IMG/VR virus record: IMGVR_UViG_2657244940_000008
Span: 1-9,363 of that record
Strand: one strand, 5' to 3'
DNA length: 9,363 nucleotides
Origin: a virus
Lineage: Duplodnaviria; Heunggongvirae; Uroviricota; Caudoviricetes
The notes below the pieces were generated by a model that had not been told where the DNA came from, ran no database searches, and saw nothing but the letters and a program-made list of their open reading frames with translations. The position numbers were made by a program, and so were the translations under genes. Positions 1 through 6,621 of the stretch are shown here, piece by piece. Every line of letters begins with the position of its first letter. The stretch's first letter is position 1.

Positions 1-49
1 ACAAGCAAGCAAATTAATAAACGATGCTTTTAGGTTTTTTCTCAAAAAC

Positions 50-391
50 TTATCTTATTACCTGTTCCATCATACAACTGAAATCGCTGTACCGGGCGTT
101 ATCCGTAACACTCCACTCCCGGCACACCACCCTGACCGTCCGGTTATGTTTCGGGGGCTTCCACAAAAAAGCCCGGTAACCACCATGCCATGACAGAAAC
201 GCGGACAGTGCCTCCCGCTCAGCATCCGTTGTCACCCGAAAAACCACCTGAAAGGTCTTCAGTTGCGCATTCAGTCCTGCCGGACGACGTTGCTAATAAC
301 CGTCGCCAAACTTCACCGTCATCACCGACGGTTTCTCCGTCACCTGCATCCCTTCCCGGGGACACCAGTGAAGGGTCTTAATCTCATCCAC
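50..391 (-). pseudogene. Minor tail protein M homologue interrupted by an in-frame amber codon (TAG at 293-295)
   Basis: Translation aligns by eye along the whole of lambda M as recalled (LHWCPREGMQVTEKPSVMTVKFGDGY-stop-QRRPAGLNAQLKTF...SWHGGYRAFLWKPP... versus FRWKVKPGMDVASVPSVRKVRFGDGYSQRAPAGLNANLKTY...EEHGGWKSFLWTPP...). TAG sits where lambda has Ser. Probable start is GTG at 389-391, overlapping the tape measure stop. The ORF track reports only the 3' piece, 50-247. Confidence 0.7.
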
Positions 392-3300
392 TCAGCATTC
401 CTCCGTCACGACGCATGGATAACATCACCGCCTGTACCCGCTGGTCAATCAGCTGCACAAGACTGCCTGCCGCCTCCGGCCCTATCTGTCCGTTAGCCCC
501 GTCATTCTGAATGGCGATATGGTAGACCGGGGAATACACCAGACCGGCACTGCCGTTCATACTGCCCACCGCGCGTACACCCAGCGAGCCATCCGCCGCC
601 CGGGTCAGGGGCATTATGGCTTCAGGTCCTGCTTCCCCCATCAGCCCGGCCCCTTTTGCAAAGGCAAAGTACGTGGGCGTATCCACAATACTGTTGCTGT
701 ACGCGCTCAGGTTTGCCGAGGTATACACGCCGCCTTTTGCATTGGCCACCGCACCGCCCAGCCAGTCACCAATGCTGCCAATAAATCCTCCTGCACCGGA
801 CATACTGTTTGCCGCCGTCTTAATTCCGTTGACAATCGCGGCATTCATAAGAACTTTTGATATTTCCTGCAGCACTGATGAGGCCCAGTTGCGCCATTCC
901 ACTTTATTCCCGTTCAGCATCTCCGTGATGTTATTCACCATCCCTGAGATACCCTCCGTCGCAAGCTGTGCTGCCTGTGAGGCGTAATCGGACGCATTAT
1001 CCACCCAGTTACTGAGCCCCTCCTGCAAGCCTTTCTGCCAGTCCGCACGCTGCACATCCGATTCGGCATAAAAGGCTGCCTGGTCCTTAAGGCGTTCGCT
1101 CAGATACTGCGCGTTCTGTGCCCGTGCCTGTCTGTAAAAATCCTCACTGATATCCCCGGCCTGATACTGAGACTGAAGGTCCGCATCCTTCTGGCGGAAG
1201 CTGTCGCGGATCTGCTGCAACTCCCGCATGCGTTCCCTGGCTCGTTCTCCCTGCCCGTACCCCAGCAGTTCGGCTTCATTTGATGCACGCGCAGCCACAT
1301 TATCATTCTTCAGGGTCTCTTCCCGGGATCGCAACTGTTCCCGGATTTTTTGCTGGTCAATCAGGGCCGCGTTACGCAGCAGTTCCTGCTTCTGCATCTC
1401 CGTCAGGGTTTTCAGTTCGCCCTGCGCAGTCTGGTACTTCAGCTTCGCCAGCTCTGTATTCTGACCCGCCAGTGCCAGTTGCTCTTTCTGCTGCTTCAGT
1501 AGCCGGGAAAAACTGTCTTCCGCTTTTTCCGTCTCTGATTTTCCACCCCGGGATTTAGGTTTGTTCGCCTCGTTATTACGCCAGGCTTCCAGAGCATTAC
1601 TGATATAACGCTGTCTCGCCTCCTGATACGAATCCCCCACAAAACCAAGGTCATCCGCCGCATACCCCAGCCGGGCACGCTCTTTTTCCTCCCCCTTCAG
1701 TCGGGACAGGGCCAGCTCACGTTCTGTTTTTGTCAGGGCGCTCTGCTGTTTATCATCCAGGGTGGCCTGCGGCAGCCGTAACGGTACATTCACCAGTCCC
1801 TGACGCTGCTGAAGCAGTTCATTCCCCAGCCCCAGCAGACGGTTGAATTCCGTATGCTGGCCGTTCATGACCAGCAGTGACTGATACGCTTTATTCTGCT
1901 CTGCCGCCTGCTGACGAATTAACGCCACACGGCGATCTTCCAGTCCGGCAAGCACATCCTGAATGGACTGCGCCTTTTCCTGCATCTGTGCCAGACGGGA
2001 CTGCTCAACAGCAAGCTGCTCTGTTGCCTGAGCAAGCCCTTCCGTTACAGTTTTCACCGAGGTCAGATGGTTTATCATGAATCCGTCACCGGTCGTCCAG
2101 CCCGGGTTCGCCAGAACATACTGATATCCTGCGATTTTTTCCTGCAGGGATTTCACCCGACTGGCCTGTTCATCAATCAGCCGGTTCTGCTCTGTCAGCG
2201 CCGCCCGTGTTCGTCCTTCATTATCTGAGGCTTCAGGCAAAGACATTGACGGCGTTTTATGCGCGATTTCATCTATCGTCAGTGCATACTGGCGCGCTGA
2301 CTCCCTGGCCTGCTCCTGATTCTGGTACAGCGTATACCATGCTGCTGCCCCCAGCATCACCAGTCCGGGTACGCCACCAACCAGTCCCAACGCACCAGTC
2401 ATCAGACGTGAGCCCACCGCCGTTGTACTGTTCAGCGCATTCTGGGCTGCGGTTCTGGCAGCAATATTTCTGTTCAGGCGTTCCTGTGTGGCCGCCAGAC
2501 GGGCTTCTGCAGCAATCTGCATCTCCGTCCCGCGGGCTGCCGCCACAGCCTGCTGTGCACGGTACACGGCTGCCCTTGCCCGCGCCGTGGCAATCTGCGT
2601 CCCCCTGAGCTGTGCTTCCGCCAGTGCCACTTCATTACGTGCTGCCGTCACAAGTCCTGCCGTGGCAGACACCGCTCCGGAGGCCATATTGCCAAAGTAC
2701 CGGGCAACCCCGACGGCAACCAGCGCACCCACGGCTGTTGCCACATTATCAATCTGTCCGGCAACACCGTTCAGCACGCCGGAGAGCGTTTTTGTCACCC
2801 CGCTGGCCTCATTCGCGCCACCCACCCAGGCCATAAAGGCGTTTTCCACCTTTGTGATACTACCGGAAACCGTTTCCGGCATGGCCGCATATTCATCACG
2901 CAATACCCCCAGCTGGCTGATTAACGCAGGGACCACTTTATCCGCCGTCAGTTTGCCGTCGTCCGCCATCGCCTTAAGGTCTTTACGGGCCACGCCCATA
3001 CCCGCAGCCAGTGCACGTACGATCCGATCTCCGCTTTCATTGACCGAATTAAATTCCTCACCGCGTAACACCCCCTGTGCCAGCGCCTGGCTGAACTGGG
3101 TGATCACCGAGCCCGCCTCTGCCGTACTGGCACCGGAGATTTTCAGCCCCGTGGAAATGGCCTCCGTCACCTTCAGTACATCACCGGCACTGTAGCCATA
3201 TTCACGCATTGAGGCTGCCGAGCGGGCAAACAGGGCCGCATTATCTGAAAATGCCGTGCCCGTCCGCTGGCTGATATCCATCAGCACTTTCTGTGATGAC

Positions 3301-3626
3301 GAAAATTCATCGGATGACTGCGACGCCTGTTTCAGTCGGGCATTCACGGAACTCCATTCATCGGCCAGAGAAATCAGGTGCCCGGTGGCAAAGGCACCTG
3401 CAAATGCCCCCGCCGTTCCGGCAACTGAAGCGCGGATTTCCGTCAACTGGCTGTTCAGCTCAGCCAGGGCGCGTCGCTGCTCCCGGGCGACTGCGGCAGC
3501 CTGACGCCCGCCATTCTGCAGGGTCCGGTAATATTCACTGCCCATGCGGGCAGCCCGCTGGATCTCCGACTGGAATGACTGCGAATTTGCCGAAATTTTG
3601 ATAATCAGTTCACGTAACGTCGCCAT
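384..3626 (-). CDS. Tail tape measure protein (1080 aa, lambda H-like)
   Basis: Largest ORF, in the canonical position after G/GT; SD GGAGAAAGG upstream of ATG at 3624-3626; Ala/Gln-rich helical repeats, an internal hydrophobic segment (LMTGALGLVGGVPGLVMLGAAAWY) and a C-terminal GLMGEAGPEAIMPL motif typical of lambda H-type proteins. Confidence 0.9.
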   Translation of the reverse strand: MATLRELIIKISANSQSFQSEIQRAARMGSEYYRTLQNGGRQAAAVAREQRRALAELNSQLTEIRASVAGTAGAFAGAFATGHLISLADEWSSVNARLKQASQSSDEFSSSQKVLMDISQRTGTAFSDNAALFARSAASMREYGYSAGDVLKVTEAISTGLKISGASTAEAGSVITQFSQALAQGVLRGEEFNSVNESGDRIVRALAAGMGVARKDLKAMADDGKLTADKVVPALISQLGVLRDEYAAMPETVSGSITKVENAFMAWVGGANEASGVTKTLSGVLNGVAGQIDNVATAVGALVAVGVARYFGNMASGAVSATAGLVTAARNEVALAEAQLRGTQIATARARAAVYRAQQAVAAARGTEMQIAAEARLAATQERLNRNIAARTAAQNALNSTTAVGSRLMTGALGLVGGVPGLVMLGAAAWYTLYQNQEQARESARQYALTIDEIAHKTPSMSLPEASDNEGRTRAALTEQNRLIDEQASRVKSLQEKIAGYQYVLANPGWTTGDGFMINHLTSVKTVTEGLAQATEQLAVEQSRLAQMQEKAQSIQDVLAGLEDRRVALIRQQAAEQNKAYQSLLVMNGQHTEFNRLLGLGNELLQQRQGLVNVPLRLPQATLDDKQQSALTKTERELALSRLKGEEKERARLGYAADDLGFVGDSYQEARQRYISNALEAWRNNEANKPKSRGGKSETEKAEDSFSRLLKQQKEQLALAGQNTELAKLKYQTAQGELKTLTEMQKQELLRNAALIDQQKIREQLRSREETLKNDNVAARASNEAELLGYGQGERARERMRELQQIRDSFRQKDADLQSQYQAGDISEDFYRQARAQNAQYLSERLKDQAAFYAESDVQRADWQKGLQEGLSNWVDNASDYASQAAQLATEGISGMVNNITEMLNGNKVEWRNWASSVLQEISKVLMNAAIVNGIKTAANSMSGAGGFIGSIGDWLGGAVANAKGGVYTSANLSAYSNSIVDTPTYFAFAKGAGLMGEAGPEAIMPLTRAADGSLGVRAVGSMNGSAGLVYSPVYHIAIQNDGANGQIGPEAAGSLVQLIDQRVQAVMLSMRRDGGMLSG

Positions 3627-3644
3627 TCACCTTTCTCCGGGCGT

Positions 3645-3664
3645 AAAAAAACCGCCTCAGCGGT
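3645..3664 (-). terminator. Short hairpin plus U-tract between T stop and tape measure start
   Basis: Minus strand ACCGC-TGAG-GCGGT followed by TTTTTT; 5-bp stem and 4-nt loop; weak intrinsic-terminator or attenuator-like structure. Confidence 0.3.
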
Positions 3665-3673
3665 TCTCATCAT

Positions 3674-3955
3674 TCATGACTGTGCTGCAAAGCTCAGCGC
3701 GTCTTCCAGCGCCGCAAACGGATCCACCTCCGGCTTATCCTCATCCTCGCCCCAGCAGAGCATGGCGTCCTTCAGTGCAACATTCATCCCCTGTGCCCCG
3801 AAAACCGCTTTCACGATCTGTGCATTACGGATATCCCCGCGCTCATCACCCAGCGGGGATACCCTGTCGAACTCCATCCACATCATCGCCTCGCTCGCAC
3901 TCAGGCTGTGCCGCAGTTCGGATAAGGTGCGCCCCAGACGGAGCGCAAGTCGCAT
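3674..3955 (-). CDS. Tail assembly chaperone T-frame segment, expressed as G-T fusion via -1 frameshift
   Basis: ORF lies in the -1 frame relative to G, directly downstream of the slippery site and upstream of the tape measure gene, the conserved lambda G/GT arrangement. The T frame is open from the slip site (3982-3988) to the stop at 3674-3676. Confidence 0.7.
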   Translation of the reverse strand: MRLALRLGRTLSELRHSLSASEAMMWMEFDRVSPLGDERGDIRNAQIVKAVFGAQGMNVALKDAMLCWGEDEDKPEVDPFAALEDALSFAAQS

Positions 3956-3978
3956 CAGAAAGCGAATTTCCGGGCGGG

Positions 3979-4353
3979 CTACTTTTTTCTGGCCGACTCT
4001 GCATCAGCGATCAGTTCCAGTGCCTGACGCAGCAACCGGGCATGTACCGGACCATAGACGGCCAGCACCTGCTCACGGTCGTCCGGAGTGAACACCCGTT
4101 GCAGGTCAGTATCACACAGGACATCGCAGAACAGCGTCACATCCGCTTCCAGGTTACGGCGGGTTTTCGCCACCACCGACAGGGTATCGTCATCCTCTCC
4201 ATCACCATTGAGCACTTCCTGCCACAGATACCAGGCCTCTGCCGAAGGCTCCCGCAGCACCACGCTGACATTTCTCCATTCCGGCACCTTCACCGTTTTA
4301 TGACGGAACCCCGACAGTCTGGCCAGCGCCAGTGTTTTCAGATCCTTTTTCAT
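3979..4353 (-). CDS. Tail assembly chaperone G (124 aa)
   Basis: ATG at 4351-4353 is preceded by AAGGGGA; the longer ORF-track start at 4401 has no SD and overlaps the major tail gene. Ends ...ARKK-TAG with the slippery heptamer A_AAA_AAG as its last codons. Confidence 0.75.
   Translation of the reverse strand: MKKDLKTLALARLSGFRHKTVKVPEWRNVSVVLREPSAEAWYLWQEVLNGDGEDDDTLSVVAKTRRNLEADVTLFCDVLCDTDLQRVFTPDDREQVLAVYGPVHARLLRQALELIADAESARKK
3982..3988 (-). other. Programmed -1 ribosomal frameshift site (slippery heptamer A AAA AAG) producing the G-T fusion
   Basis: Minus strand reads GCC AGA AAA AAG TAG. A -1 slip on A_AAA_AAG continues as GTA GCC CGC CCG GAA ATT CGC TTT CTG ATG CGC (VARPEIRFLMR), entering the 93-aa T ORF. 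The T frame is -1 relative to G. Confidence 0.7.
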
Positions 4354-4367
4354 GATGACCCATCCCC

Positions 4368-5084
4368 TTATCCGGCGGCTGCGCTCACTGTCACGGTGCA
4401 TTCAAAAGACGTCACACTCTGTGCTTTCTCTGCCGAATCGGTCACCACGCAGGTATATTTCCCCGCATCAGCGGACTGCGCACCTGGCTTACTGAAGGTG
4501 TCTGTCGTCTGACCGTCAACCGGCTGACCATCCTTCTTCCAGGCGTATTTATACGGCGGCGTTCCCCCGTTGGCACTGACTGACATTGTCAGCAGCGCAC
4601 CGGTATTCACGGTAAGTGTCTTATCCAGATTTTTCCCAAACGCCAGCGGTACCACAAAGGACACCGGTTTGCCTTTCAGACGCAGTGAAAACGTTGCTGC
4701 CACCACGCCGTTGGTACCGGATGACCAGGTGTGCTGACGCACTTCCGCCAGGAACTTAAAGCCCTTACCGGACGGAAACAGCACCTTAAACGCATACAAC
4801 GCGTCATTGTCATAGGCATCACGCAGGGCGTTCTGGGCCTGATTCAGATAAAAATTACCCGACATGGAAATCTCGGACGACGCCCCCAGACCGTTGATGT
4901 TCTCCTGCTCTGTGGAGCAGAGCGTGGTCACATCAATATCCTGTTTCTGACCGGCGGTGAACTGGACTTCCTTGATAGTGCAGTCCAGGCGCAGATATTC
5001 CGCCTTATCCATAGTTTCAGCAGTCGCCGGGGCAGATGAAATCATCACCTGCGTCAGCTGTGAGCGTTCATACAAAGCAGACAT
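4368..5084 (-). CDS. Major tail (tube) protein with C-terminal Ig-like domain (lambda V analogue, 238 aa)
   Basis: Strong SD AGGAGG upstream of ATG at 5082-5084; C-terminal segment PPYKYAWKKDGQPVDG...DAGKYTCVVTD...FECTVTV has the immunoglobulin-like signature seen on lambda V-type tail tube proteins. Confidence 0.8.
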   Translation of the reverse strand: MSALYERSQLTQVMISSAPATAETMDKAEYLRLDCTIKEVQFTAGQKQDIDVTTLCSTEQENINGLGASSEISMSGNFYLNQAQNALRDAYDNDALYAFKVLFPSGKGFKFLAEVRQHTWSSGTNGVVAATFSLRLKGKPVSFVVPLAFGKNLDKTLTVNTGALLTMSVSANGGTPPYKYAWKKDGQPVDGQTTDTFSKPGAQSADAGKYTCVVTDSAEKAQSVTSFECTVTVSAAAG

Positions 5085-5100
5085 TCTGCCTCCTGATAAT

Positions 5101-5150: not shown

Positions 5151-5495
5151 TCACACCGTGACCTGAAACTCCAGGGTTGCACGGTAACAGCGGTTTTCCG
5201 GAATATAGTCCTGCATTTCACTGACGGATCCCGGGGCCAGCAGCATTATGGCTTCACGGGCGTCCTGACGTATCTGACGCGCCTGCGTCACAGTCCCGGC
5301 ATAAACGTCTATCTGCACCGACACTGAGGACTCCGCCTGCCCGCCCATCACGTCCGCAGACACCGATGAAATCAGGCTGAAAACCACCCACGGAAGCGCC
5401 ACCGACGGCCTGCCATCCAGCAGGGGGACCACATACGGGTACACCTGCCCGCCGGCAAGATGCGCCAGATGAGGATACAAATCCGCCTCCGTCAT
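5151..5495 (-). CDS. Tail terminator / tail completion protein (lambda U analogue, DUF3168-like, 114 aa)
   Basis: ATGA overlap with the upstream gene (5492-5495); lies immediately upstream of the major tail gene as lambda U does. Confidence 0.55.
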   Translation of the reverse strand: MTEADLYPHLAHLAGGQVYPYVVPLLDGRPSVALPWVVFSLISSVSADVMGGQAESSVSVQIDVYAGTVTQARQIRQDAREAIMLLAPGSVSEMQDYIPENRCYRATLEFQVTV

Positions 5496-5938
5496 CGTCT
5501 CAGTACCTCATCAATGGCCCGGTTTATCCGCGCAATCGCCACCTGAGCTGCCTGTTCACTGCGCACATCAAACGCCGGGCGCACAAACGGGTGCGGTGGC
5601 ATATTCACGGTCCCCATTTCCACAAACCGCCAGTAGAAAGCATTGCGCGGGTTATCCGCCTTCATGGTGTTATCGCTGTTACCGGTGTCCGGATTAACAC
5701 CACGGATATGGACACCGGATTCCATCCCGCCATCGCGGGAGCGCCGGGAAAGGATCACCACATTGCGGCGCAGTTTTCCCCTGCGTACCGGTGCCCGTGA
5801 CACCACTTCTTCTTTCAGCACATTCGCACCAGCACGGGTTGCCTCACGCAGCACCCGGTTATTTTCTGCACCACTCAGAAGCTGCAAATCACGGCTTATT
5901 TCTTCAAGTCCCGAAAAATCCAGCAGGGTTTCGATCAT
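5492..5938 (-). CDS. HK97 gp10-like tail-component / neck protein (148 aa)
   Basis: ATGA start/stop overlap with the upstream gene (5935-5938); size and synteny match the HK97-gp10 family position. Confidence 0.65.
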   Translation of the reverse strand: MIETLLDFSGLEEISRDLQLLSGAENNRVLREATRAGANVLKEEVVSRAPVRRGKLRRNVVILSRRSRDGGMESGVHIRGVNPDTGNSDNTMKADNPRNAFYWRFVEMGTVNMPPHPFVRPAFDVRSEQAAQVAIARINRAIDEVLRR

Positions 5939-6285
5939 TTTTCCCCTCCCAGCCGACAGAGAATTTCCAGGCGCCCGCCGGTCGCATCCGGCACGGGCAC
6001 CCCGACAACATTCAGGATACAGTCACGCCAGGGACCACTCAGCACATGAAGTCGTGACGCCGCCGTGATTTCCCGACCGGACTGACCGCGCACCCAGATG
6101 CGGATTTCCGCCTGCGCCATTTCCGCACCGGACTGCATCCGCTCCCGGCTGCCCCTGCCCCAGATATCCGCATGAATTTTCCCGCATGACACCCATTCTT
6201 CCGTCATTTCTCCGGCAGCATTACGGGTTAACACCGGGTTCAGAACACTTATCATCTGTGTCAGACGACCTGCAGATATTGCCAT
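5935..6285 (-). CDS. Head-tail adaptor / head closure protein (116 aa)
   Basis: Strong Shine-Dalgarno GGAGGGGGA directly upstream of ATG at 6283-6285; small protein in the expected synteny position for a head-tail joining protein. Confidence 0.65.
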   Translation of the reverse strand: MAISAGRLTQMISVLNPVLTRNAAGEMTEEWVSCGKIHADIWGRGSRERMQSGAEMAQAEIRIWVRGQSGREITAASRLHVLSGPWRDCILNVVGVPVPDATGGRLEILCRLGGEK

Positions 6286-6294
6286 TCCCCCTCC

Positions 6295-6621
6295 TCATAA
6301 CACCGTCGGACAACGCAAATCGTAAATCAGCACGGAAACAGAAAACGGCAACTCCCCCTGCACGAGGTCTTCCCGCTCCGCAAGATCCGGATTCCGGTAC
6401 AGCATCCCGGTCAGTCGCATGGCAGCCCCCTTCATCCGGGTTAATGCCTCACCCGGGATCAGTTCACCGTCCTCACGAATCACTTTATCCCGGCTGCCCT
6501 GAATGTAGGCCAGCAGCACGGCGGTAGCCTGACGAACCTTGTCCATCAGCATGTCATCATCCGCGTCATGGTCGACACGCAGATGTGCCTTGATCTCTTC
6601 CAGTGTCAGTAATGCCGTCAT
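6295..6621 (-). CDS. gp6-like head-tail connector protein (108 aa)
   Basis: Size and position immediately after the head gene; start overlaps the upstream stop as ATGA; sequence has the character of HK97 gp6-type connector proteins (by eye, no search). Confidence 0.7.
   Translation of the reverse strand: MTALLTLEEIKAHLRVDHDADDDMLMDKVRQATAVLLAYIQGSRDKVIREDGELIPGEALTRMKGAAMRLTGMLYRNPDLAEREDLVQGELPFSVSVLIYDLRCPTVL

Follow-up and report, generated by a model that had tools for sequence, protein, structure and literature searches.

An Amber Codon Private to One Assembly Interrupts the Gene M Homologue of a Lambda-like Escherichia coli Prophage

Gene Content of the Prophage Fragment

The stretch of DNA analyzed in this work (hereafter the window, 9,363 bases) derives from a lambda-like prophage in a draft Escherichia coli genome. 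It is the entire contig CDRA01000390.1 of the draft assembly GCA_000947375.1, which comprises at least 390 contigs, and it is presented in the contig's own orientation; the locus L003 is its reverse complement. The convincing genes are all located on the minus strand and together constitute the late structural module of a lambdoid prophage. From upstream to downstream, the features are as follows:

6618-9242, minus strand: portal protein gene with a repeat-rich C-terminal extension
6295-6621, minus strand: head-tail connector gene
5935-6285, minus strand: head closure protein gene
5492-5938, minus strand: gene for an HK97 gp10-like protein
5151-5495, minus strand: tail completion protein gene
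4368-5084, minus strand: gene for the major tail protein with an Ig domain
3979-4401, minus strand: tail assembly chaperone G
3674-3955, minus strand: tail assembly chaperone T
384-3626, minus strand: tape measure protein gene, 1080 amino acids, intact, directly upstream of M (open reading frame; Pfam TMP_3, Phage_HK97_TLTM and Tape_meas_lam_C)
50-391, minus strand: gene M homologue (distal tail/tail-tip protein), 113 codons and a stop, with an amber codon at codon 33 (translation, PF05939 and lambda gpM)
1-49, minus strand: A+T-rich spacer after M, identical in the relatives L002 and L006

Apart from the M homologue, the remaining nine genes of the window contain no internal stop codons, and their lengths equal those of annotated relatives. 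Plus-strand open reading frames antisense to these genes (24-179, 190-381 and 263-496) had no Pfam match and were treated as spurious. A tRNA scan of the 9.4 kb found no tRNA gene in the window, and an Rfam scan found no RNA family; a promoter and terminator scan returned one terminator-like hairpin, which is located within M and could be expected by chance.

Many complete E. coli genomes have a module annotated with this layout, and in them terminase and a capsid gene lie upstream. The window ends 49 nt past M. In relatives, the downstream order is L-K-I-J: L, a C40 peptidase (K), a tail assembly protein and J come after M, in some cases with a porin gene inserted. In the part that precedes this module, the relative L009, of the same prophage type, carries a gene for a 645-aa 'phage major capsid protein' (6738-8675 of that locus) between the large terminase and portal genes, with no separate protease or capsid gene after the portal, an order unlike that of both lambda and HK97.

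The porin insert is a gene for a 387-aa OmpC-like protein placed between M and L. It is annotated as ompC in strain STEC17-183 (L002, 3857-5020) and is present as a 387-aa open reading frame in L006 (828-1991), while the window ends in the spacer that precedes the porin gene. In strains G6/7 and UCPROB-002, L follows M directly; in three further relatives (L004, L005 and L008), a different A+T-rich insert is found after M. The window itself is mosaic: its near-identity to L006 extends to about position 3925, and over 3926-5086 the two differ at 68 positions. The 3' end of M agrees with the lineage that carries the porin gene, and most of M with prophages of the G6/7 type. The ends of the contig probably mark the limits of repeats between paralogous prophages in the draft.

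Two further features of the module were observed. In gene G, a slippery heptamer A-AAA-AAG is located directly before the TAG stop (3979-4000, minus strand), where a -1 frameshift would be expected to produce the G-T chaperone fusion. In the portal gene (6618-9242, minus strand), a 162-bp tandem repeat spans positions 7084-7838 with 4.7 copies at 93% identity, a copy number that may be unreliable in a short-read draft. This repeat encodes 54-aa units (TPDDVRPMLEQMVKEAVSHIPVPRDGRDYDPDVLQKAVNDAVANIP.PADGKS.) in the long C-terminal extension of the HK97-type portal protein. Strain UCPROB-002 carries the same portal array, also of 4.7 copies, and its portal gene is annotated as frameshifted.

The Gene M Homologue and Its Amber Codon

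The minus-strand translation of 391 to 50 reads VDEIKTLHWCPREGMQVTEKPSVMTVKFGDGY, a stop codon, and then QRRPAGLNAQLKTF, continuing to EQVIR and the terminal stop. The terminal stop is TAA at 52 to 50, and the sole internal stop of the homologue is TAG, codon 33, at 295 to 293 on the minus strand. The parts of the gene referred to below are as follows:

400-404, minus strand: Shine-Dalgarno sequence GGAGG, seen by inspection of the sequence and preceding the GTG by 8 nt
389-391, minus strand: GTG start of M, overlapping the tape measure stop as GTGGATGA (overlap 384-391)
296-388, minus strand: codons 2-32 of M, which with the GTG are the only part expected to be translated, as a 32-aa peptide
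53-292, minus strand: codons 34-113 of M, the C-terminal 80 codons, untranslated

The presence of an in-frame TAG at 293-295 with homology on both sides had been noted in a sequence-only reading of this DNA, and translation, Pfam and alignment with lambda gpM all confirm it. When Gln replaces the stop, the protein matches the PF05939 (Phage_min_tail) profile over positions 1-108 of 108 with 113.7 bits and an E-value of 7e-33, against a curated cut-off of 39 bits. Each side of the stop is also recognized by itself: the 32 preceding residues match profile positions 1-28 (E 1e-6), and the 65 that follow match 50-108 (E 8e-13). Lambda gpM (PDB 8IYK, chain M; 8iyk_M) aligns at residues 2-108 (E 2e-27), with its Ser29 placed at the amber position. 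Members of the family, lambda gpM included, thus cover both sides of the stop, as an alignment with M homologues had been proposed to check. A natural gene boundary, or a shorter natural form of M, is ruled out since both the PF05939 profile and lambda gpM span the site. The proposal that the TAG is a nonsense lesion and not a gene boundary is supported by the same matches and by the sense codon that close relatives carry there.

The relationship to lambda gene M extends beyond the sequence match, which covers the full length of the protein. The homologue is of similar size (113 aa here vs. 109 aa in lambda) and is located directly downstream of the tape measure gene, with an 8-nt overlap with its stop; in lambda, too, M directly follows the tape measure gene with overlapping stop and start codons, and the window's relatives share the downstream order L-K-I-J. 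Three differences were found: a GTG start, which lies four codons ahead of the position of lambda Met1; the amber codon, in place of Ser29 in lambda and of Gln in close relatives; and the porin gene between M and L in the window's lineage. The uninterrupted frame of about 110 aa expected of this family is broken by the TAG at codon 33, and the homologue is disrupted. Judged by its sequence and position, the feature at 50-391 is a member of the PF05939/gpM family by descent and, in effect, a pseudogene.

Translation Start

It had also been remarked that the codons upstream of the amber lack an ATG in register with lambda Met1, with the GTG at 389-391 named as one candidate start. The GTG is present and corresponds to the annotated start of intact homologues: the 113-aa (342-nt) proteins WP_047645337.1, WP_001672459.1 and WP_115255701.1, which carry the label 'phage tail protein' in E. 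coli genomes, begin at the equivalent GTG in PGAP/RefSeq annotation. In the GGAGGAATGCTGAGTG region, 15 of 16 columns are invariant among the three relatives compared. With the GGAGG upstream and the GTG start used by PGAP, the missing ATG is no anomaly, and the start of M reads as an ordinary coupled GTG with a four-codon extension relative to lambda. After the amber, the closest in-frame restart is a GTG at 247 to 245, which lacks a Shine-Dalgarno sequence and whose product would miss the first 48 residues.

Ancestral Codon and Distribution of the TAG Allele

At codon 33, relatives carry CAG at six loci and GAA at one. Among complete genomes, the closest relative is strain G6/7, with 98% identity over 641 nt and CAG at this codon; the more distant STEC17-183 has GAA. 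As a control, a pattern search that allowed any codon at position 33 found five prophage fragments in IMG/VR, each with CAG, and no match in species-representative genomes. The base that makes the stop is window position 295, where the plus strand has A here and G in relatives (CAG Gln to TAG); it had previously been suggested that base 294 should be checked in the reads, and comparison with relatives corrects this to 295.

The most informative relative is the IMG/VR fragment IMGVR_UViG_2693429642_000014 (L006), which is identical to window positions 1-3925 except at three positions. One is position 295, with A in the window (TAG) and G in L006 (CAG), and it is the only difference across the whole M gene. 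Another is position 1557, a synonymous CCT/CCC change in Pro690 of the tape measure gene, and the last is a single N in L006, also in the tape measure gene. Because L006 is near-identical and has CAG, an intact allele exists on essentially the same DNA, with CAG as the ancestral codon, and the amber is a single C-to-T transition in the coding strand.

The TAG allele was absent from 5,426 complete E. coli genomes in a 61-mer search (best identity 98.4%), and exact-sequence searches did not find it in species-representative genomes, IMG/VR or JGI metagenomes. The 65-aa C-terminal remnant has no record as a called gene in other assemblies, and the exact tape measure protein is recorded on the source contig only. 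Across these collections, the amber codon is, as far as the sequences go, private to one assembly.

Explanations for the Amber Codon

The explanation that we favor, and consider probable, is a recent inactivating transition in prophage gene M with loss of function. A single C-to-T change in the coding strand, seen as G to A at position 295 of the window, would have turned the CAG of codon 33 into TAG, and translation from the normal GTG would stop after 32 residues. The resulting stub would be unable to replace gpM, because gpM is a structural hexameric ring in which all 109 residues are ordered. In lambda, this ring is located at the distal tail and anchors the L/J tip to the tail tube; the protein has a beta-sandwich fold, and six M subunits suffice per tail (PMC10721106). 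The window copy would yield no functional M, and the prophage alone would be unable to build infectious tails, because the product has 32 residues and there is no good restart. The loss of tail assembly is drawn here from the known role of gpM in lambda.

A sequencing or assembly error, with CAG and an intact M in the true prophage, is the alternative that deserves most attention, and we regard it as unlikely but not negligible. Such a consensus error may have arisen, because the change rests on one draft contig. The source assembly is fragmented, and the window is one short, complete contig of it; this sequence family occurs up to seven times per genome, which favors mis-assembly; and the TAG is a singleton, seen in one assembly and in no other collection, where a consensus error would look identical. 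A single base separates the window's M from an otherwise identical sequence. Yet the known paralogous alleles have CAG or GAA at this codon (a Ser codon in lambda), and TAG would not result if copies with CAG and GAA had been collapsed into one. The region is also not noisy, with one other called difference from L006 in the 3.9 kb around the site, and consensus substitution errors are rare in short-read assemblies. Far less credible is the idea of a natural gene boundary at the TAG, or of programmed recoding (reassignment or readthrough) typical of the phage group, to which we attach a practically negligible chance. TAG-to-Gln recoding occurs in some phage lineages, and here an in-frame TAG stands where relatives have Gln. 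Recoding or programmed readthrough is nevertheless not supported, because the TAG is private, gene G ends in TAG, the other window genes are free of internal stops and the window lacks a tRNA gene. Relatives do not share the stop (CAG in six close relatives, GAA in one, and TAG in none of the four collections searched), in-frame TAG codons do not recur in other window genes, and neither a tRNA nor an Rfam element is present in the window. The use of TAG as the true stop of gene G (AAAAAAG-TAG), together with the private status of the stop in M, rules out reassignment of the codon.

It is also conceivable, and in our judgment improbable, that the amber is real and M is still supplied, by an amber suppressor tRNA, by low-level readthrough or in trans from intact M genes of other lambdoid prophages in the same genome. 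With Gln as the ancestral residue, a suppressor of the glnV/supE type would restore the ancestral protein exactly. Readthrough or complementation would be eased by the small demand for the protein, six M subunits per tail (PMC10721106), and genomes with this module contain up to seven copies of the region. In E. coli O157 Sakai, defective prophages are packaged and transferred, and the morphogenetic genes of its co-resident lambdoid prophages are very similar (PMC2669165). Against continued supply stand the lack of a tRNA gene in the 9.4-kb window and the sequence flanking the stop, which is identical to that of the CAG allele, so that no readthrough context has evolved. Moreover, gene G ends in TAG right after its frameshift site, and a strong suppressor would alter the G product too. 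The narrower proposal that the isolate has a natural Gln-inserting amber suppressor tRNA, with the prophage as a natural suppressor-dependent tail mutant, is more doubtful still; if it were true, the M protein would regain precisely its ancestral sequence. There is no sign that the host of this prophage is a suppressor strain. The sequence-only reading had held that tail assembly should be blocked unless suppressed, which is reasonable but incomplete; it omits both complementation in trans and an error in the draft assembly.

Significance for the Prophage and Its Relatives

The probable inactivation of M has well-known counterparts in phage genetics. The classical lambda sus (amber) M mutants used in tail-assembly genetics carry nonsense lesions of the CAG-to-TAG type, as here. 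In a host without suppression, a phage with such an M amber is expected to make no active tails, and a suppressor that inserts Gln would be expected to rescue it. In contrast to those mutants, which were selected in the laboratory on suppressor hosts, the change in the window would be a spontaneous one in the prophage of a sequenced isolate.

Counterparts are also known among resident prophages. In E. coli O157 Sakai, the lambdoid prophages that reside together commonly carry defective morphogenesis genes (PMC2669165). The Sakai Sp prophages resemble the one described here in having the capsid gene ahead of the portal gene, a connector of the HK97 type and tail genes like those of lambda, and in carrying single inactivated morphogenesis genes with the rest intact and rescue by a sibling prophage possible (PMC2669165). 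Unlike in those prophages, one lesion is visible in the 9.4 kb of the window. The finding is ordinary in this respect, as point-inactivated morphogenesis genes are already familiar in resident lambdoid prophages.

In annotation, the feature at 50-391 is best recorded as a pseudogene, a disrupted homologue of M, subject to confirmation of base 295 from the reads, and the prophage as one that probably cannot make tails on its own. Beyond annotation, the finding matters very little and opens no new question. If the mutation is real, the inactivation would be very young, as over 3.9 kb the sibling sequence has just one further called difference, which is synonymous. It would then represent an early step of prophage decay, with every other gene of the window still intact, and a small example of the first step of prophage domestication, in which rescue by a sibling prophage may be possible, as in E. 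coli O157.
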